NCBI GenBank assembly: GCA_003056145.1
Contig: LSNL01000007.1
Location: 1-44,240, forward strand
From: Parcubacteria group bacterium M10-OD1-1
Lineage (GTDB): Bacteria; Patescibacteriota; Minisyncoccia; Moranbacterales; UBA2206
Direction: 5' to 3'
Length of the DNA: 44,240 bases
Shown: positions 1 through 8,572 of the stretch, piece after piece
How positions within the stretch are numbered: the stretch's first letter is position 1
Layout of the letters: each line of letters opens with the position of its first letter
The notes under the pieces: generated by a model
What the model saw: only the letters and a program-made list of their open reading frames with translations
Told to the model about the DNA's origin: nothing
Database searches by the model: none
Program-made: the position numbers and the translations under genes

Positions 1-534
1 TTTTGTTTTTCCTTCTGCTTCTATATTTTCTTTAATTAAAGCTTCCGTAGATAAAAGTGAATAGGTATTTCCTTCAATAGCTGAAGACTTCCACGAAAAC
101 TCAATCATTATTCTTTCAAATTCTTTATTGATTAAAGTTTGACTATCATACTTTGAGAAATTTTTTATAAATTCAGTCTGCAATTCTTCAATCTTGTTTT
201 TTTCCTCTATCGTGAAAATATCATTTTCCAAAATTTTAAAAATCTTAAAATTAAAACTTTCTTTTACATTTCTTCTTAAATATGGTGTCGCAAAATATTT
301 TCCAGAATCGATTGGTAAAAATATTTTATTTAGATCCGTAATGCTGTATTTCACACCCCTTCCGGATCCGGTCTTTGAGATAAATCCTTGCTCTTGTAAA
401 TAGTTTAAATCTCTTTGTAAGGTTGTTCTTTCTATTGATTTTCCAAGAAAATCTAAAATTTCAGAGTTAGAAACAGTATTTTTACTCTGGATGAAGTTAA
501 TAATCTTTTGTTGTCTTTGTTGTCTTTTTCTCAT
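1..534 (-). CDS. Fic-family protein with N-terminal HTH (partial, runs off window start)
   Basis: Not in ORF track. Manual translation from ATG at 534 gives MRKRQQRQQKIINFIQSKNTVSNSEILDFLGKSIERTTLQRDLNYLQEQGFISKTGSGRGVKY (wHTH-like), then ...FSWKSSAIEGNTYSLLSTEALI. SxxIEGN is typical of Fic-domain N-terminal regions. Confidence 0.8.
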   Translation of the reverse strand, partial: MRKRQQRQQKIINFIQSKNTVSNSEILDFLGKSIERTTLQRDLNYLQEQGFISKTGSGRGVKYSITDLNKIFLPIDSGKYFATPYLRRNVKESFNFKIFKILENDIFTIEEKNKIEELQTEFIKNFSKYDSQTLINKEFERIMIEFSWKSSAIEGNTYSLLSTEALIKENIEAEGKTK

Positions 535-554
535 ATTATATATAATAACATATA

Positions 555-648
555 ATTGCTGCATTTTCAATCACTTATTGCTGCATTTTATATTACTTTT
601 TTAAAGAATCCCTTCAAAGTTAAGACTTTATTGCTGCATTTTATATTA
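555..648. repeat. Three direct repeats ATTGCTGCATTTT (555-567, 577-589, 630-642); copies 2 and 3 share 21 bp; probable operators
   Basis: Seen in sequence. Copy 1 lies in the spacer of a putative minus-strand TTGAAA-17-TATTAT promoter just upstream of the HTH-Fic ATG. Confidence 0.7.
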
Positions 649-776: not shown

Positions 777-1277
777 TTACTTTTTTTCAAAAACTTCTTC
801 AAAGAAATTTGCTACTTTATCTTTTAATTCATTAAAGTCCATGTTTTGTTTATTTTTTGAAGCAATGATAATTGCCAAATGATACATAGCAAAGCCAATT
901 GGAGTAAATCCTTCAAAATCATTAATCTCAAAATCTCTAAACAATGTCTGTAAAATCTCTAAAAATTCATCTTTTGATAATTCTCTTGAAGTATAATTAT
1001 TTTTTTCAAGAAAAAATACCGTACTAGTCATAGCCAATCGCTTATTTCCATTGGAAAAATAATGTGTATTTATATTAATAAAAAGAAAAGAAGCTTTATC
1101 AAAAATGCTAGGATAATAATCTGTTTTTGAACGATCTATCAAAGAAAAATATTTATCAATTCCTTCTCTTTCTTGATCATAATTAGGCACTTCTTCTTGA
1201 TATTCATAATCAAAGCTATTGATAGTGTCAATAATTTCAATTAAATCTTCTGGAGTAATATATTTAATATCTTTCAT
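777..1277 (-). CDS. Doc/Fic (death-on-curing) family toxin
   Basis: HYFSNGNKRLA matches the Doc-type HxFx[DN]GNKR motif; 166 aa. Confidence 0.85.
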   Translation of the reverse strand: MKDIKYITPEDLIEIIDTINSFDYEYQEEVPNYDQEREGIDKYFSLIDRSKTDYYPSIFDKASFLFININTHYFSNGNKRLAMTSTVFFLEKNNYTSRELSKDEFLEILQTLFRDFEINDFEGFTPIGFAMYHLAIIIASKNKQNMDFNELKDKVANFFEEVFEKK

Positions 1278-1288
1278 GCATTTATAAC

Positions 1289-1462
1289 CTACGTACTCCC
1301 TAGTTTTTTAATTGCACTTCCATACTTTTTTTTAACAGTTTTGGCAACTGATCCACTTTTATACGCACCTAAAATTTGCCCTTTGCGACCTGCAGAGGTT
1401 GTACGCTGACGAATAGCATAATATTTGCCAGTAGATGGATTGTGTATACGTTTTTGTCCCAT
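1289..1462 (-). CDS. Small basic protein, putative Doc antitoxin (57 aa, start re-called at MGQKR)
   Basis: 11 nt upstream of Doc. C-terminus VKKKYGSAIKKLGST resembles the C-terminal helix of Phd-type antitoxins. Confidence 0.55.
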   Translation of the reverse strand: MGQKRIHNPSTGKYYAIRQRTTSAGRKGQILGAYKSGSVAKTVKKKYGSAIKKLGST

Positions 1463-1576
1463 ATATTTATATTTAAACAATATCATTAAATGCGACATTT
1501 TCAAAGTCTAATTCATCATCCACAATTTTCTTCAATCCCCAAAATGCTCTTTTGCCTTCGACAAGAAGTTTGTTTA

Positions 1577-2119
1577 TTAAATTTTTTGTTTTTTTATAAT
1601 TTGATTCATTCTCTCTATATATTCTTCAAATTCTTTTTGAAAATCATCTTCATTCTTAAAAAATATTTCTCCTTTTGCATGCAGTCTTTCATTTCTTTTT
1701 TTTATCGGTAAAGATAAATTTCTAACTGAACCAAAGTCAAACCCTAGCAAATAGAAAAAATCGAATATATCTGATTCTCTTATTGTAGAAAAATTAAAAG
1801 GCGTTGTTATTTTATTTTTAAAATCACTATTCCTACTTTTTGTCCTGTAATTATTTACGAAATATTCAAACTCTGTCATAATCTCATTGTTCTTTTCACC
1901 CTCTTTTTGTTTTATCTCTTCAAATATTTTAGACATTCTAAAAATTTGAATATACACAAATGTCATATACAAAATATGCAAATGTGTATAAGCACTTGTA
2001 AAAAGATCATTCTCTGAACAACCCCAGAAATGTTCCAAATGATGTTTTACATATTCCGACAGCCTAAGCTCTGAATAGCCCAATGGAAAATATTCTATTA
2101 TTTGATATTGTTCGTCCAT
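1577..2119 (-). CDS. Helical protein with RxxxxH motif, putative HEPN domain; probably frameshifted (continuation to 1473)
   Basis: KRNERLHAKG gives R-x4-H. After the A7 run (1589-1595) the -1 frame reads KNLINKLLVEGKRAFWGLKKIVDDELDFENVAFNDIV*, stopping 10 nt before the next ATG. Confidence 0.5.
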   Translation of the reverse strand: MDEQYQIIEYFPLGYSELRLSEYVKHHLEHFWGCSENDLFTSAYTHLHILYMTFVYIQIFRMSKIFEEIKQKEGEKNNEIMTEFEYFVNNYRTKSRNSDFKNKITTPFNFSTIRESDIFDFFYLLGFDFGSVRNLSLPIKKRNERLHAKGEIFFKNEDDFQKEFEEYIERMNQIIKKQKI

Positions 2120-2144
2120 GATGATTTTCTTATAAGAATTTTAA

Positions 2145-3212
2145 TTAAAAATATTCATTAAAAATAAGAGCTAGTTTTTTATAAAAATCTGATTGTTTTA
2201 AATTCTTATGACAGTATTTGCTTACATTTGATTTAGATTTTTTTGTATATTTTTTCAAAGATATTTCCCATAAATCAGATTTCTTTTCCGTTATTAATTC
2301 TAAAAATAAACCATCTTCATTGTAACATTCCCAATGTTGAGAAGTTTGGGATATTTCTTTGATAGCCCAGTCATATTTTATTTTCAGTTTTCCAAAATCA
2401 TTTCTAACTTCTCTCACATTTTTATATCTTTTGTCTAAATCAATATTTAGACATTTATTGATTATCCTCTTTAATTTGCTATGAACATGAGGTAAATATT
2501 TTTTTCTATCAGGAAACTTTCCAAATATAATTTGCTCTTTTAATATTTTTTTATTTTTAAAATCATCCCATTGTTCAGAAAAATAAGAATTTCCATTTAG
2601 TAGTCTGTATAAAGTAACTCCTAGCATGTAAATATCACTTTGTTCATCAGCTTCTTTTTTTTGACCTGATAACTTTTCTGGCGGGTAGTGTGCAGTATAT
2701 ATTTTCTTGAATATGCTTGATCCATCTTTATTTTTTATATTTGCTAATCCAAAATCAGATAATTTATATATATTTTCGTTTTTGATAAGAATATTACCAG
2801 GTTTAATATCTAAATGAAGTATTTGTTTAGTATGAGCATGTTCCAATGCATGTAAAACACATTCTGAAATCTTAACAATTTGTTTTGTAGGCAAGAAAAT
2901 AGTTTTATTAAGAATATCTTGCACACTTCCATTTTCTAAAAATTCCATTCTTATGCTAAATCCAGGTTTTATAAATTCTGCATCATAAATATCTACAATA
3001 TATTGAGATTTTCTTAAATATTCTAAAACTGAAGATTCAAATAAATTATCATTAAGTTCTTTGGCAATATCTTTTTCTGTTTTTCCTTTAATAGGAATTA
3101 TTTTTACAGCTTCTTTTCTTAGAAGATATGTATTTTCACAAAGTAAAACATCTCCAAAATTTCCGTCAGAGGATATTTTACTCAAAAATTTTAATTTATT
3201 TGGTATTTGCAT
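2145..3212 (-). CDS. Hanks-type Ser/Thr protein kinase
   Basis: DGNFGDV (Gly loop), AVKII, HLDIKPGNIL, KLSDFGLA, YPPE, DIYMLG, plus a ~70 aa C-terminal extension. Confidence 0.95.
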   Translation of the reverse strand: MQIPNKLKFLSKISSDGNFGDVLLCENTYLLRKEAVKIIPIKGKTEKDIAKELNDNLFESSVLEYLRKSQYIVDIYDAEFIKPGFSIRMEFLENGSVQDILNKTIFLPTKQIVKISECVLHALEHAHTKQILHLDIKPGNILIKNENIYKLSDFGLANIKNKDGSSIFKKIYTAHYPPEKLSGQKKEADEQSDIYMLGVTLYRLLNGNSYFSEQWDDFKNKKILKEQIIFGKFPDRKKYLPHVHSKLKRIINKCLNIDLDKRYKNVREVRNDFGKLKIKYDWAIKEISQTSQHWECYNEDGLFLELITEKKSDLWEISLKKYTKKSKSNVSKYCHKNLKQSDFYKKLALIFNEYF

Positions 3213-3215
3213 AAT

Positions 3216-3683
3216 TTAAAAAGTTTCTTTCAAAGAAAATAAAAATACCAATCCATCAAGTAATTTGTCTGATTTTGCTATACTATAGTTTTTTAATACT
3301 TCATTTTTATTTTTTTCTAATAACGCTTTAAAATCTTTATTCGAAATAGATAATTTTTCCCTAACTGTAACAAGAGTGAGTTCTAAAATATGTAAATTAT
3401 TTTGATAACAATAAAGATTCAAAATGGCAGAATTAGCAAATCCTTCCTCATCTTTAATTACACCCCTGCATTTTTGAGGCGATTGATATGCAAAAGCACT
3501 GGGAGAATACCTTGTTTGTATATGTGATATTTCATCTAATATCTTGTTATATTTTTCTCCTTTATTCATCGCAGATTCTAGTGATATTTTTTCTTTCTCA
3601 CCAAAAATCAAATTTCCAGAATTGATCGTACATTCTAAAAAATGTATTTTCTCTTTTTCAAATCTAAATAATATAATTTTCAT
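3216..3683 (-). CDS. Hypothetical protein, RNase H/RuvC-like fold with degenerate active site
   Basis: Pattern parallels RuvC: KIILFRFEKEKIHFLEC; KILDEISHIQTRYSPSAFAYQSP; AILNLYCYQNNLHILELTLVTVREKL; DKLLDGLVFL. By-eye inference. Confidence 0.5.
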   Translation of the reverse strand: MKIILFRFEKEKIHFLECTINSGNLIFGEKEKISLESAMNKGEKYNKILDEISHIQTRYSPSAFAYQSPQKCRGVIKDEEGFANSAILNLYCYQNNLHILELTLVTVREKLSISNKDFKALLEKNKNEVLKNYSIAKSDKLLDGLVFLFSLKETF

Positions 3684-3694
3684 AATAATTTATT

Positions 3695-4288
3695 TTACTC
3701 TCCCCAAACTTCTGCGATTTTGGTTTTGATTTTCTTTTCAAAAATTTTAATGAGTTTCTTGTTTTGATTTACCATTTCTTGCTCGGCTTCAATTTCAGAA
3801 ACAATTTTTTCTTGAATTTTTAGTGGTGGTAAAAATATTTTTTGAGTATAAGCATCTTCTCTATTTAATCCAGGTATTCCTGCACCACCTCGCAATTTCT
3901 GTAATTCTAATTTTTGAAGAATGTTAAAAATAAATTTCAAATTATCATTTCTTTTTAATTTTACATAATAAGTTGTATCTATTGGAAAACAATTCTCTTC
4001 AACCCATACAACTTCACCAGCAGAACCCTTTCTTCCAACAATTATGGAAGGCCCTTTAATTAAGTATTTATTATGATACCCACTTATTCCATTTGAACCC
4101 ATTACTGGATATTTTCCATCAACCCTATCTCTCTTAGGTAAACTTTTACCATACTCTAAACTTAATACTTCTTTCAGCTCGACCATCTCCCAATCACTCT
4201 CAATTTTAATATTTGGTTTCCAGTTTTCTACAACCTGCTTTGCTCCGTCAATGACTTTTTGATAAGAATCTAATTCTTCAACAATTTG
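3695..4288 (-). CDS. hsdS: HsdS specificity domain (second TRD plus coiled-coil spacer), disconnected 3' part of the HsdM-S fusion
   Basis: LEYGKSL, YPVMGSNG, IIVGRKGSAG, IPGLN...IFLPPLKIQEKIVSEIEAEQ. The frame is open upstream of the track ATG (4186) to ~4288: QIVEELDSYQKVIDGAKQVVENWKP. Confidence 0.9.
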   Translation of the reverse strand, partial: QIVEELDSYQKVIDGAKQVVENWKPNIKIESDWEMVELKEVLSLEYGKSLPKRDRVDGKYPVMGSNGISGYHNKYLIKGPSIIVGRKGSAGEVVWVEENCFPIDTTYYVKLKRNDNLKFIFNILQKLELQKLRGGAGIPGLNREDAYTQKIFLPPLKIQEKIVSEIEAEQEMVNQNKKLIKIFEKKIKTKIAEVWGE

Positions 4289-6036
4289 TTTTTTTCAACA
4301 TTTTTTACTGTTATCATTGGAATACCCATTCCTTCAGTTATACTTTTGAAATCTAAATTTTTTAACAAACTATAAATATATTTTGTTAAAACTTTTTTAT
4401 TATTTAAACTAACCGCAATAGTTGTTTGGGTACAAGTAAAATCTTCTAAATTTGGCATCTTTACAGAACCAATTGTCCCTCTAGCACCAATTACTAAAGT
4501 ATTTTTACTAAATGATAGTTTTGTTTTTTCTGTAAAATTCCAAGGTTTTTCAGATGTATCTGCACTAAAAATTGCTTTTCCTTTTCCAGTTAAATCTTTC
4601 TTTATTAAAGTCTCTCCCATTCTTATATTAGCAATTTCTTTTAAATTAAAAATATCAAATTTCACATTAGAATAATCGACAACTTCTCTATATCTATCAC
4701 CAGTTAAATTATAATCTCCACTCTCTGCAATCTCTGATTTCTTTACTGCAAAAGCAACTTTTTGACCTTCTTTAACTTTTTGTTTTTCTTTCCACTCTTT
4801 CAAAACTTCTAAAGCTAACGGAAAATCATTTTTATCAATTTCTCGTCTTTGTGCTCCTAAATCAAAACCATCATTTTCTATTTTTATGAATAAAACTTCT
4901 TTTTTCTTTTTTGTTATATCGTTATCAAAAAGCAAGATGGAAGTCTTAACTCCAGAATACGGATTAAAAACTCCTGACGGTAAAGACACCACCGCATACA
5001 AACCATCTTCAACTAAAATTTTTCTCAATTTTTTATAAGCATTTGCTGATTGAAAAATAATTCCCTCCGGCACAATAATTCCTGCTCGCCCTTTTGGTCG
5101 CAAGTGTTCTACAATATAATCTACAAAAAGTACTTCGGCTCTATTTGCTTGAACACCAAATTTTGAATGTGGTTCTATTCCGCCTTTTGGAGTCATAAAT
5201 GGTGGATTGGCTAGAATAATATCAAAATCTTCATCCCAGTTATCCGTACTGGATAAAGTATCATAAACTCTAATATCTGGATTTTTGAATTTATGTAAAT
5301 AAGTATTGACTTGTGCCGTTCGCACCATATTTGAATCAATATCATATCCAGTAATATTTTTGTGAATTTTTGCTCGCTCTGCTGAAGTTAGTGGTTTTTC
5401 TTTATTTGTTGGTTTACCTGTTTTGTTATCAAGCCCATCATGAGCTTCTAAAATATGCTTATAAGCTGAAATCAAAAATCCACCAGTTCCACAAGCTGGA
5501 TCTAAAATTTTATCTTCTTTTTGTGGATCAATAGCCTTAACAATAAAATCAATAATATGCCGTGGTGTTCTAAATTGTCCCGCATCTCCTTGAGAACCCA
5601 TAATGCTTAAAAGATACTCATAAGCATTTCCTAATTCTTCAGAATTATCATATTGAAATTGGTCAATTTCTGAAAGAAATAAACCTAGTGTTCGGGGATC
5701 ATTAAAAGGTAAGTAAACATTTTTGAAAATATCTCTAAAAAGTTGCGGTATCTTATTATTTTCCGGAATTCTTTTTAATGCCTCTAAAAATAAATTTAAT
5801 TTTTCTTGATTTCCAAGACGACTGTCCATTAAATTATGCCAAGAATATTTTTTGAAATCTCCTGTGAAAAAACTGCCATTACCACCTAATTTTCTAGATT
5901 GCTCGTCCATATCATCCATAAACTTATAAATCAAAGCGGTGGTGATAAGATCAACCTGTTGCATTGGGTTTGGCAAAACTCCAACTAAAACTTGCCTAGC
6001 ACCATCTATCCTTCTTTTTGTTTCTGCTGTTAACAT
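4270..6036 (-). CDS. hsdM: Type I N6-adenine methyltransferase fused to first HsdS TRD (HsdM-S fusion, truncated by frameshift)
   Basis: GQFRTPRHI, ILDPACGTGGFL, ILANPPF; the C-terminal ~130 aa are TRD-like (GARGTIGSV, GIPMITV). Confidence 0.93.
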   Translation of the reverse strand: MLTAETKRRIDGARQVLVGVLPNPMQQVDLITTALIYKFMDDMDEQSRKLGGNGSFFTGDFKKYSWHNLMDSRLGNQEKLNLFLEALKRIPENNKIPQLFRDIFKNVYLPFNDPRTLGLFLSEIDQFQYDNSEELGNAYEYLLSIMGSQGDAGQFRTPRHIIDFIVKAIDPQKEDKILDPACGTGGFLISAYKHILEAHDGLDNKTGKPTNKEKPLTSAERAKIHKNITGYDIDSNMVRTAQVNTYLHKFKNPDIRVYDTLSSTDNWDEDFDIILANPPFMTPKGGIEPHSKFGVQANRAEVLFVDYIVEHLRPKGRAGIIVPEGIIFQSANAYKKLRKILVEDGLYAVVSLPSGVFNPYSGVKTSILLFDNDITKKKKEVLFIKIENDGFDLGAQRREIDKNDFPLALEVLKEWKEKQKVKEGQKVAFAVKKSEIAESGDYNLTGDRYREVVDYSNVKFDIFNLKEIANIRMGETLIKKDLTGKGKAIFSADTSEKPWNFTEKTKLSFSKNTLVIGARGTIGSVKMPNLEDFTCTQTTIAVSLNNKKVLTKYIYSLLKNLDFKSITEGMGIPMITVKNVEKNKLLKN

Positions 6037-6040
6037 AATT

Positions 6041-8572
6041 TTATCTATAAATATTTGTATTAATATAATCCTTTACATAAGTTGGTATTTTTTTCCTATA
6101 ATTTTCTGGAACATTTTCCAAGTCCTCCATAGTAAGTTTTGGATTAGTTGCTAGCTGATTAAATTCTTTAGTGTCAATAATATTTTCTATTTCTTTATCC
6201 TCAATGTAAGTATTAAAAAAATATTTTGTTTTTGCATATTCGTCTGGTGCTACTTCTCCCATTTCTGTTGCTCTAAACTTTTCAAATTCACTATCAAGCA
6301 ATTCTTCTTTTGTCTCAAATCGCTTTTTCTTTCCAAAAGCATAATCTAAAAGTTCATTCATTCTTACTCGTCTATCTAATTTTAATGCTTTTCTAATTTT
6401 ATCTAAATTCATAAAGTTTTTAGGCTTATCAAAAATTTGCACTCTAATAATATCACCAGCCTCTTGATAATTATTATTTTCTATCAATTTTTCTAACTCT
6501 TTATTTGTTTTTAAATCTTCATCAATAAATTTAGAAAATGCCTCTCTGTCTATCCTCATTCCGTCTTCACCGATTTTTGTTTTTTCTTTTGTCTTTATTT
6601 TATCTTCGGACTTAAGATCTATTTCATCAGCTATCGCAGGAACTAGTCCAATGCTAATATCCTCTTTTTTTCCCTCTTTTGGTAGTTCTAATATTTCATC
6701 ATAATCAAAATCTTCTTCAAAATATTGATAGTTAGCAAAAAAATCAAATAAATAAAAGTTATCTTTCTTTCTTGCTATTTCTTCTCTAGTTTCTGAGTCA
6801 ATGTACTTAAAAATATTTTTTCTAGTACCTCTTCCTTTGATTTGCACAAAATCAGATGGGGAAAATATCGGTCGCATTAATACAAGATTTAAAATATTCG
6901 GACAATCATAGCCTGTTGCCATCATCCCAACCGTAACTGTAACCCTCGATTTACTCGTTTTATAACCTTCCAAAAATTGGCTTGTGCCATTGAGTCGATC
7001 ATTAGCAAAATCAACAGTCATTTGTTGTGCTCCTTGCACATGAGAGGTAATTTGAACTGCAAAATCAGACTTATATTTTCCTAACCATTTCTGCATCGCT
7101 AACTTATTTAAAATACTTGTAATTTTAGCAGCATGATTTTGGCTAACTGCGAAAATAATCGTCTTGCCAATTTCACCGCTAACTGGATCAAGCTTTGCAT
7201 TATTTAAAAAAGCCTTACAAAATTGAACATTTGTTTCTTCATTAAAAAATCTTTTTTCAAAATTTCTTCCAAAAAAAGTTTCCTCGATTTCTTTTCCATT
7301 GTCATCAACGGTATGTACGGCATAACCCTCTTCGGATAAAAGTTCAGTAGTAATTTCTGTACGAATATCTAAAACATACGGATTAACTAAATATTTTGGC
7401 ACACCATCAGCTAAGCTAAATCTATAGGTAGGCTCTCCAGACTCACAACCAAAAGTTTTATAAGTATCTAATAATTGTCTTTTTTCATAAGCTCGTTGTG
7501 AATTTTGTTTAACATCTTCGTCAACTCCTTTTAAATACTCTTTTGGCGTAGCCGTTAGCCCAAGTTTAAATCCTACAAAATATTCAAAAACTGCTCGAGC
7601 ATTTCCACTTATTGACCTGTGAGATTCATCAGAAATAACAAACTCAAAATCAGTTGGTGAAAACTCTTTTTTATATCTGTCATTTGAAGCTAAGCTTTGC
7701 ACAGTTGAAATAACTATATGTGCATTTTTCCAAGTATCTCTTGATTCTTTATAAACAGCTATTTGATAATCTTTTTCTAAATAATCCCTAAAAGCTTTTT
7801 TTGCTTGATCTTCTAATTCCAACCTATCCACCAAAAATAATATCCTCTTAGCATTGCCCGTTTTAAGAAATAATTTTGAAATAGCCGCTGTAGTCAAGGT
7901 TTTTCCTGTTCCAGTCGCCATCTCTAAAAGATATCTAGTATTTCCTTTTTTGGCTGATTCTTGAATAGCGTAAATTGCCTCTAGCTGATAATCTCTTAAA
8001 ATTCTTACCCCTGTTTTAAATAAATAATCATTTTTTTCTTCCTCTGTTCCATTTTGCCACAGTGGATTATTTTGAAAGCTTAGATTTTTTGAAAGAGCAA
8101 TATAATCTTCACCCACTTCTTCTAGTGATAATCTTTCTGGATTCGGATTGTATTTACTAAATTCAGCTAATGATTCTTGTGTAGGGAATTTAATAATTAT
8201 TTCTGGATTTCCTTTTTCAATATCCCAAAGATAATGGATATTTCCATTCGATAAAATAACATAACGAGCATGATTTGTTCTGGCATATTTTCTAGCTTGA
8301 TCTTTTGCACTTAAAGGATTTATACTTTCTTTCTTTGCCTCTAAAACTACCAAAGCTTTTCCGTCTTGATCTAATAACAAATAATCAATATAGCCATCCT
8401 TTGTCATTTCAAAATTATCTCCCTGACTATTTATATCTTCTTTTTTAATCTTTACATTTGGCTCTAGTTGAATATTTGCCTCTCCATTTTCATCATCAAA
8501 AAACCGCCATCCTGCTTCTTCAAGAAGTTTGTTTATTTTTATTCGTGCTTTTGCCTCCTTTGCAGTTGTCAT
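6041..8572 (-). CDS. hsdR: Type I restriction endonuclease subunit R (EcoAI/EcoEI-like)
   Basis: DYLLLD...VLEAKK (PD-D/ExK nuclease), MATGTGKT, DESHR, LTATP, ATGYDCP, QIKGRGTR. Confidence 0.95.
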   Translation of the reverse strand: MTTAKEAKARIKINKLLEEAGWRFFDDENGEANIQLEPNVKIKKEDINSQGDNFEMTKDGYIDYLLLDQDGKALVVLEAKKESINPLSAKDQARKYARTNHARYVILSNGNIHYLWDIEKGNPEIIIKFPTQESLAEFSKYNPNPERLSLEEVGEDYIALSKNLSFQNNPLWQNGTEEEKNDYLFKTGVRILRDYQLEAIYAIQESAKKGNTRYLLEMATGTGKTLTTAAISKLFLKTGNAKRILFLVDRLELEDQAKKAFRDYLEKDYQIAVYKESRDTWKNAHIVISTVQSLASNDRYKKEFSPTDFEFVISDESHRSISGNARAVFEYFVGFKLGLTATPKEYLKGVDEDVKQNSQRAYEKRQLLDTYKTFGCESGEPTYRFSLADGVPKYLVNPYVLDIRTEITTELLSEEGYAVHTVDDNGKEIEETFFGRNFEKRFFNEETNVQFCKAFLNNAKLDPVSGEIGKTIIFAVSQNHAAKITSILNKLAMQKWLGKYKSDFAVQITSHVQGAQQMTVDFANDRLNGTSQFLEGYKTSKSRVTVTVGMMATGYDCPNILNLVLMRPIFSPSDFVQIKGRGTRKNIFKYIDSETREEIARKKDNFYLFDFFANYQYFEEDFDYDEILELPKEGKKEDISIGLVPAIADEIDLKSEDKIKTKEKTKIGEDGMRIDREAFSKFIDEDLKTNKELEKLIENNNYQEAGDIIRVQIFDKPKNFMNLDKIRKALKLDRRVRMNELLDYAFGKKKRFETKEELLDSEFEKFRATEMGEVAPDEYAKTKYFFNTYIEDKEIENIIDTKEFNQLATNPKLTMEDLENVPENYRKKIPTYVKDYINTNIYR

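Follow-up and report, generated by a model that had tools for sequence, protein, structure and literature searches.

Does the cluster formed by a small RuvC-fold gene, a serine/threonine kinase gene and a HEPN-like gene within a type I restriction-modification (R-M) operon of Parcubacteria group bacterium M10-OD1-1 represent one defence system, or is it a composite? The locus lies at the low end of contig LSNL01000007.1 (assembly GCA_003056145.1), and the whole stretch of 44,240 nucleotides (nt) that was analysed is referred to here as the window. A first-pass annotation had described the three genes as a single module, in which the RuvC-fold protein senses DNA structures or inhibition of restriction and the kinase switches an HEPN effector on or off. 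Comparison with related loci leads to another answer: the three genes belong to two modules with independent distributions, a conclusion that we hold with high confidence. The HEPN gene is a conserved member of the R-M operon; the RuvC-fold gene and the kinase gene form a pair that is inserted in a variable slot between hsdS and the HEPN gene. The genes concerned are listed below in the order of transcription, with p155 and p180 denoting proteins of 155 and 180 amino acids (aa).

6041..8572, minus strand: hsdR, type I restriction subunit, 843 aa, EcoAI/FtnUII-like (Pfam ResIII, E 5.3e-40, and HSDR_N_2)
4270..6036, minus strand: hsdM fused in frame to one hsdS target-recognition half, 588 aa (Pfam)
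3695..4186, minus strand: half-size hsdS, 163 aa, second target-recognition domain and conserved C-terminal helix (Methylase_S, E 7.5e-20)
3216..3683, minus strand: p155, kinase partner with a predicted RuvC fold and a non-canonical active site, 155 aa (AlphaFold2 and Foldseek)
2145..3212, minus strand: Stk-type Hanks kinase, 355 aa, kinase domain and C-terminal domain of ~80 aa (Pfam Pkinase, E 2.6e-40)
1577..2119, minus strand: p180, HEPN-superfamily protein, accessory fourth gene of the type I R-M family, C-terminally short (295 representative relatives)

Absence of co-occurrence had been named beforehand as an outcome that refutes a three-gene system, and this is what was found. Neither p155 nor the kinase is present in any of the ten loci that carry a member of the p180 family (nine genome loci and the metagenome contig L018), and no p180-family member is present in any of the 13 distinct p155-kinase loci (15 loci fetched, besides the window). 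Among the loci examined, the window is the only place where p180 and the pair meet. Because the homologues do not co-occur and because the kinase part matches a described system, the interpretation of the three genes as one system is refuted, and the central claim of a kinase that switches an HEPN effector fails with it. A check with PADLOC and phage sequences matched the kinase to Stk of phages 933W and 24B and to the models of PD-T4-6. The descriptions of the single components fared better. The intact catalytic motifs of the kinase, the RuvC fold of the 155-aa protein, the R-x4-H motif of the 180-aa protein and its HEPN-like nature were all borne out by the evidence given below, and the defence setting is upheld by the R-M operon and by neighbours of defence type. 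The gene string had been characterised as lying entirely on the minus strand with gaps of only 3-25 nt. According to the list of open reading frames (ORFs), every gene of the string between window positions 1 and 8572 is indeed on the minus strand; the gaps from hsdR to a helix-turn-helix (HTH) gene at the window start are 4, 83, 11, 3, 25, 72, 11 and 206 nt, so that the description is correct for most junctions but not for those of 83, 72 and 206 nt. No terminator-like site was found inside the gene string, and a promoter-like site is located ahead of hsdR.

As judged from the family matches, the type I R-M system is complete, with HsdR, HsdM and HsdS all encoded, and these assignments are solid. 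In addition to its Pfam matches, HsdR matched the NCBIfam model restrict_EcoAI (1.8e-60, under the cut-off). The HsdM-S fusion comprises an N6_Mtase domain at residues 133-452 (6.5e-57) and a Methylase_S domain at residues 458-584 (2.4e-12), and it is recognised by the PADLOC model MTase_I (2.4e-100); the half-size HsdS matched Specificity_I of PADLOC (1e-39). The C-terminus of the latter is 62% identical to that of the L018 HsdS, whose gene directly precedes a HEPN gene. The hsdS gene is split (3695-6036): one half is fused to the C-terminus of HsdM and the free half of 163 aa lies 83 nt downstream. Since the HsdM alignments of two related loci (L044 and L050) likewise continue into the S part as a single piece, the fusion may be a regular trait of this R-M family and not damage.

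In this R-M family, hsdR-hsdM-hsdS is followed by the HEPN gene as a conserved fourth member. Loci with p180 relatives were fetched with an alignment of 12 sequences, and in nine out of nine genome loci the p180 homologue is located downstream of hsdS; the full order hsdR-hsdM-hsdS-p180 is present in each contig that extends far enough upstream. The hosts are members of Cloacimonadota, Gammaproteobacteria, Desulfobacterales, Peribacteria, Fusobacteriales, Saccharibacteria (two loci), Gracilibacteria and Bdellovibrionales, and their R-M proteins are orthologous to those of the window (HsdR 45-56% identical in eight loci, HsdM 42-68%). The same pattern of R-M genes and p180 was found on contig L018, where the p180 gene overlaps the end of hsdS. 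HEPN proteins linked to R-M systems are a described theme, with PrrC, RloC and at least 16 R-M-associated HEPN clades, and according to Anantharaman et al. (2013, PMC3710099) the mobile neighbourhoods concerned also contain Doc toxins. The p180 protein resembles PrrC, RloC and other R-M-linked HEPN proteins in its R-N-x3-H motif, its all-helical model and its conserved partnership with a type I R-M operon; unlike PrrC and RloC, p180 and its relatives of ~230 aa do not have an N-terminal ABC-type ATPase domain.

We accept p180 as HEPN-like on sequence grounds, namely its R-N-x3-H signature and the HEPN matches of its relatives. While a word-based search yielded two relatives, an exhaustive profile search yielded 295 representatives. 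In 44 aligned relatives H48, M52, E115, R142 and H147 are invariant and N143 is present in at least 90%; the motif R142-N143-E-R-L-H147 thus reads R-N-x3-H and agrees with the HEPN consensus R-x4-6-H with a polar residue after the arginine. Eight of these 44 relatives match HEPN_RiboL-PSP of Pfam (best E 1.1e-5) and single ones match the AbiA_CTD, Swt1 and MAE_28990 HEPN models. The window protein itself has no match in Pfam, NCBIfam, PADLOC or PHROGs. Its AlphaFold2 model is all-helical with a predicted local distance difference test score (pLDDT) of 91.7, and a Foldseek search of the PDB with this model returned nothing below E 1, with 7bxo, 7ae9 and Csm6 (5yjc) among the weak matches. The usual length in the family is about 225-245 aa, which explains the alternative length of ~220 aa in the first-pass annotation; the copy of the window has 180 aa and lacks ~45-50 C-terminal residues. 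It also carries an insertion of ~25 residues around residues 64-100. No significant frameshifted remnant of the missing C-terminus was detected downstream of the stop codon. Judged by its sequence, p180 of the window may be a decaying copy, impaired by truncation.

The junction between hsdS and the HEPN gene is a cargo slot, a defence hotspot within the operon. In six related operons (L044, L045, L047-L049 and L018) the two genes overlap or are separated by 25 nt or less. Three other operons carry additional genes at this very position: a Shedu nuclease with an SduA_C domain in L046 (2095-3258), a 360-aa protein together with a Fic/Doc toxin in L043 (811-2330), and two genes of unknown kind in L050 (5911-7001). 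In the window the slot is occupied by p155 and the kinase, with 11 nt left on the hsdS side and 25 nt on the p180 side. When the flanks of the cassette were searched for repeats and target-site duplications, nothing but AT-rich repeats at chance level came to light.

The genes for p155 and the kinase constitute a discrete, tightly coupled two-gene cassette. They are separated by 3 nt in the window, and in all 13 other loci, too, the kinase gene comes right after a RuvC-like gene. In every context examined a gene for a protein of 152-156 aa ends between -4 and +13 nt from the kinase start, and its membership of the p155 family was confirmed in those contexts that were tested. For at least 23 of the 36 clusters of the kinase subfamily, the contig has the same length as that of a p155 cluster. 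A conserved small ORF after the kinase was not found in the window and 12 related loci. Two of the loci (L002:4006-5499 and L020:9636-11132) encode a DUF2779 protein of ~498 aa after the kinase, with weak Cas4-like and RNase_H_2 matches; its gene is perhaps an optional third member in part of the cassettes. In L035 (7034-7216) an ORF of 60 aa, which ends in ...IDQLVYKPYNLTKEEIKIVELN, overlaps the stop codon of the kinase gene; by eye it looks like the C-terminal tail of an Eco57I/PglX-type methyltransferase and is probably a relic of cassette insertion and no trailing peptide.

The cassette is set in defence islands and integrative elements. In six of 14 distinct loci, the window counted, R-M genes are located directly upstream and on the same strand, and they are of several types: besides the type I genes described above, another type I R-M family (L020), a type IIG enzyme (L002), two N6_N4 methyltransferases (L126) and a type III mod-res pair (L128) precede the pair. 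In the sixth of these loci, L035, the gene for an Eco57I-like methyltransferase is the second one ahead of the pair, in the company of an SNF2/PLD protein, and a HEPN_Toprim_N protein is encoded just upstream. Other neighbours are SoFic (L023), SIR2 (L029), a P4-type integrase (L005), a large helicase-nuclease together with a tyrosine recombinase (L001/L127), and serine recombinases together with AIPR (L034 and L129). Relatives of p155 were found neither in the phage collection nor in viral contigs. The cassette crosses the border between genetic codes: p155 and the kinase are each 77% identical between the window (code 11) and a Gracilibacteria contig (code 25), which implies horizontal transfer followed by recoding. 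Many p155 homologues in the databases (P0004, P0045, P0058 and P0069-P0074) have tryptophan at a glycine that is conserved in the family; their genes, as well as that at L001:4254-4721, carry four to nine in-frame TGA codons, and these sequences are therefore explained as Gracilibacteria proteins of code 25 (TGA = Gly) that were translated with code 4.

To which family does the kinase belong? Its motifs are intact, with the G-loop at residues 17-22, AVK with K37, HLDIKPGN at 133-140 and DFG at 153-155, and it also matched phrog_2361 (1.2e-55). The subfamily of the window kinase is discrete and consists of 36 clusters at 43-100% identity, with the next step down at 37%. The nearest kinases beyond it are 33-37% identical, have 350 aa, are encoded behind a res-type partner of ~155 aa and adjoin S24 repressors in prophage regions of Bacteroidota type. 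One of these prophage kinases (L037) is 36.7% identical to the window kinase over residues 10-351, that is over nearly the whole length (BLASTP), and Stk of Shiga toxin (Stx) phages is 31.6% identical over residues 6-301 (tblastn, E 5e-37). A profile of the C-terminal ~80 aa of the window subfamily detects the C-termini of the kinases of L037 and P0116 (E 4e-7, residues 282-349). More than 20 PD-T4-6 models of PADLOC match the kinase, the best with E 1.8e-38 for residues 15-277 against model positions 18-273 of 292. Because of the homology to Stk, the shared C-terminal domain and the PD-T4-6 models we regard the kinase as a member of a known family of defence kinases. Stk of phage 933W is described in published accounts as an abortive-infection kinase that acts against phage HK97 and is triggered by the superinfecting phage (Friedman et al. 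2011, Mol Microbiol 82:567, as cited in PMC3681748 and PMC8008677), and PD-T4-6 is defined as a single serine/threonine kinase defence gene (Vassallo et al. 2022, PMC9519451).

The prophage relatives share the gene order, too. Phage 24B has cI, DUF3024, res, stk and an ORF of 54 aa in this order, and the 153-aa res product is annotated in GenBank as 'putative Holliday junction resolvase, RuvC superfamily'. SPbeta-like phages also carry a res-like gene before the kinase gene, and a Stk-like kinase directly follows a res-like gene in 70 of the 70 viral loci in which the sequence continues downstream.

The p155 family comprises 76 clusters, almost all of 151-165 aa. Searches of Pfam, NCBIfam, PADLOC and PHROGs gave no match for p155, and a profile search of the PDB sequences with the family gave nothing meaningful. 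Its AlphaFold2 model, built from an alignment of 27 sequences, has a pLDDT of 91.6 and a predicted template-modelling (pTM) score of 0.86. The 12 best PDB matches of the model in Foldseek are all RuvC proteins (E. coli, Deinococcus and Thermus) with template-modelling (TM) scores of 0.6-0.69, the best one being 1hjr (E 1.9e-7, TM 0.66); viral RuvC-like proteins were matched as well. The model thus resembles RuvC (PF02075; 1hjr, 4ld0 and 7w8d) in fold, size and order of the secondary-structure elements, but p155 differs from RuvC in having no match at the sequence level and no full set of catalytic Asp/Glu residues. Conserved residues of p155 include R7, F8, E9, Y45, Q67, E79, R108 and K137; in the 27-sequence alignment E9 never varies, and D78, E79 and D139 hardly do. 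The residues of the site were compared with RuvC by their position in matching secondary-structure elements, not by superposition. At the end of strand 1, R7-F8-E9 stands at the position of the first aspartate of RuvC (D7); at the end of strand 4 there is a nearly invariant glutamine, Q67, where RuvC has E66; D139 and D143 are placed at the last helix. According to the model, the acidic catalytic tetrad of RuvC (D7, E66, D138 and D141 in E. coli) is not kept in p155.

A comparison of p155 with the res families of prophages by hhalign gave a probability of 6.6% with small alignments and of 22.6% with larger ones (P 1.8e-4). The larger alignment, despite its low probability, is collinear from end to end (residues 1-152 against 1-153) and pairs conserved residues, R7 with R7 and E79 with E87. 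As far as can be told from the sequences, p155 looks like a new, second family of partners that is distinct from res.

On balance, the best explanation of these results, and in our view a rather likely one, combines the two modules with an abortive role of the kinase. The first module is the type I R-M system hsdR-hsdM-hsdS-HEPN, in which the HEPN protein presumably serves as an RNase in a second line of defence, a role that has been proposed for other HEPN proteins linked to R-M systems. The second is a mobile cassette of p155 and a Stk-type kinase, inserted in the short spacer between hsdS and the HEPN gene, and would represent a distant branch of the res-stk operon of prophages. We assume that p155 and the kinase are produced in fixed proportion by translational coupling and subsequently form a complex, for which the C-terminal domain of the kinase is perhaps the contact site. 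In this complex p155 may silence the kinase, may sense a cue of the phage, for instance one of its proteins or DNA that is branched or undergoing recombination, or may do both. The kinase, once freed, would phosphorylate many proteins of the cell and thereby abort the infection. We consider an anti-phage role of the p155-kinase pair reasonably probable, while the specific role of p155 as a sensor or inhibitor is a tentative and somewhat doubtful part of the model.

Several points weigh against this explanation. No phenotype is on record for the p155-kinase branch. The sequence homology of p155 and res is not established, given the hhalign probabilities of 7-23%, and the ORF of ~55 aa that trails stk in prophages (24B, SPbetaL7, L037 and L039) is lacking here. 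A match to PD-T4-6 is weak by itself, as the models also match housekeeping kinases. According to what Friedman and colleagues reportedly described in 2011, the kinase alone may suffice for defence; together with the single-gene definition of PD-T4-6, this means that the partner is perhaps modulatory and not essential. Finally, at least 16 loci encode p155 amid ordinary genes of the chromosome and with no kinase gene beside it, so that it need not be a dedicated regulator of the kinase.

These stand-alone copies of p155, which reside in housekeeping neighbourhoods of Gracilibacteria and Margulisbacteria, look like a new observation. In Gracilibacteria they are found in conserved synteny beside tilS and often selO. 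Around position 10000 of L012, L013 and L015-L017 the order is tilS (on the opposite strand), p155, often selO, and a gene for a membrane protein of 160 aa. SelO is an AMPylase with a kinase fold, and the fact that a kinase-fold gene again adjoins p155 is perhaps a coincidence. In bins of Marinamargulisbacteria type and in others the stand-alone p155 gene lies among genes for transporters, SPFH and YaiI. In the tree, the stand-alone copies group into lineage-specific clades, and copies linked to a kinase are dispersed around these in a region that lacks resolution. The two sets share their conserved residues, and E79 holds in the split comparison of kinase-linked and stand-alone copies; since stand-alone copies with the same conserved residues exist, p155 has a function that is independent of an adjacent kinase.

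Among the alternatives to an autonomous abortive cassette, a functional tie of the pair to R-M systems in general survives best, although we consider it unlikely. The pair would then act as a back-up when restriction is evaded or inhibited, similar to PrrC in EcoprrI, and the cue could be, for example, an anti-restriction protein or unrestricted phage DNA. A weaker version of the first-pass idea, that modules of this kind back up R-M systems, finds some support in the known R-M-linked HEPN genes (PMC3710099) and in the six of 14 loci in which the pair stands behind R-M genes, which moreover are of differing types and on the same strand. The remaining loci, however, have integrases, SoFic or SIR2 beside the pair and no R-M genes, and the res-stk operons of prophages are located behind cI and not behind R-M genes. 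The slot behind hsdS takes Shedu and Doc as well. Defence genes also cluster for other reasons, and read-through transcription is another possible cause of such an order.

That p155 itself is the effector, an active structure-specific nuclease with the kinase as its regulator or sensor, appears improbable to us. The RuvC fold, the invariant E9, the nearly invariant D78, E79 and D139, the conserved basic residues R108 and K137, and stand-alone copies that function without a kinase would suit a nuclease. The composition of the site argues in the opposite direction, with Q67 in place of E66 of RuvC and R7/F8 in place of the first catalytic aspartate; the exchange E66Q inactivates E. coli RuvC, and the related prophage family has an invariant arginine at the position of the first aspartate. 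Even less probable is a pair without any anti-phage role, be it an addiction module of toxin-antitoxin type or a cellular signalling pair in DNA repair. A small gene followed by an enzyme gene with overlapping or 3-nt junctions, the location of the pair on integrative elements and the stand-alone p155 genes in housekeeping synteny would be in agreement with this idea; against it speak the homology of the kinase to one with a published role in abortive infection, the great predominance of defence genes among the neighbours, and the fact that orphan antitoxins would not be expected in chromosomal synteny that is conserved throughout a lineage. That the R-M operon harbours one system of three genes, with a RuvC-fold sensor, a kinase and a HEPN effector, is hardly credible any more, since the tight spacing of the adjacent genes on one strand of the window and the different HEPN family (HEPN_Toprim_N) just upstream of the pair in L035 are opposed by ten loci with p180 alone, 13 with the pair alone and the C-terminal truncation of p180 in the window.

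The two-gene, Stk-type reading of the cassette can be compared with described systems. The window cassette and that of phages 933W and 24B have in common homologous Hanks kinases of equal length with the same C-terminal domain of ~80 aa, a coupled RuvC-like gene for ~153-155 aa immediately before the kinase gene, and a location on mobile or defence DNA. They differ in the partner, which in the window comes from another sequence family whose homology to res (L0083 of 933W) is not proven, and in the trailing ORF of ~55 aa, which the window cassette does not have. Cassettes of the window type reside in defence islands and integrative elements, not in prophage immunity regions; their hosts are candidate-phyla and other uncultured bacteria, and p155 also occurs alone. 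PD-T4-6 is similar to the extent that the window kinase matches many of its PADLOC models, but it is one gene by definition, whereas the window kinase is bound to a partner gene. A methylation system beside a Hanks kinase is also reminiscent of MADS, and the best PADLOC match of the kinase is mad6 (2.4e-43); the window kinase, however, has half the length of MAD6. MADS was rejected: the NCBIfam scores are 108.7 bits for MAD6 (cut-off 460) and 119.9 bits for MAD2 (cut-off 720), and mad1, mad3, mad4 and mad7 are absent. PglW of BREX type 2 was rejected likewise, with 35.1 bits against a cut-off of 990 and no BREX genes in the window.

In the literature that was searched, Stk of 933W and PD-T4-6 are treated as single-gene kinase defences. 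No papers that discuss a RuvC-like partner of Stk or PD-T4-6 were found there; such a partner of stk was found only as the 'res' annotation line in the GenBank record of phage 24B. The present results indicate that the pairing of a kinase with a RuvC-fold protein persists even where the partner can no longer be recognised by its sequence and the genes lie outside prophages, that the partner family also leads an independent existence in candidate-phyla bacteria, and that one family of type I R-M systems retains a HEPN gene with a slot for defence cargo in front of it. They offer a handle on how kinase-based immunity may sense an infection. One could go further and imagine Stk-type kinases not as single-protein systems but as the effectors of an ancient two-component immune module that spans phyla and whose sensor is a resolvase turned pseudo-enzyme that originated from, or imitates, the chromosomal stand-alone RuvC-like protein of Gracilibacteria and Margulisbacteria, with a cassette that docks preferentially behind R-M systems in order to respond to failure of restriction. 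Taken jointly, these propositions are speculative and rather improbable.

The composite of two independent defence modules is part of an AT-rich island that abuts the leu operon. The G+C content is 25-32% in the block of R-M, kinase and Doc genes, compared with ~40% in leuB-leuD-leuC. Between window positions 8500 and 9000, at the boundary of hsdR and leuB, it rises from ~30% to ~40%. The block looks like an acquired island that reaches past the start of the window. Three further genes of the string are located between p180 and this start:

1289..1504, minus strand: small ORF, 71 aa from TTG or 57 aa from an internal ATG (ORF list)
777..1277, minus strand: Doc/Fic-family toxin, 166 aa (Pfam Fic, E 6.9e-5)
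1..570, minus strand: HTH protein, truncated by the window edge (HTH_DeoR, E 4.3e-6)

The assignment of the Doc protein is further suggested by NCBIfam DOC_P1 (3e-8, under the cut-off) and by phrog_577, a Doc-like toxin (2.7e-12). The product of the small ORF (57-71 aa) is basic and has no family match in Pfam, NCBIfam, PADLOC or PHROGs. It is possible that it is a new antitoxin for Doc, a candidate whose basis is only its position 11 nt upstream of the Doc gene. The HTH protein at the window edge matched the PADLOC model SoFic (6.7e-6) with only the HTH part of the model, and by eye its last C-terminal residues look like the N-terminal motif of Fic.

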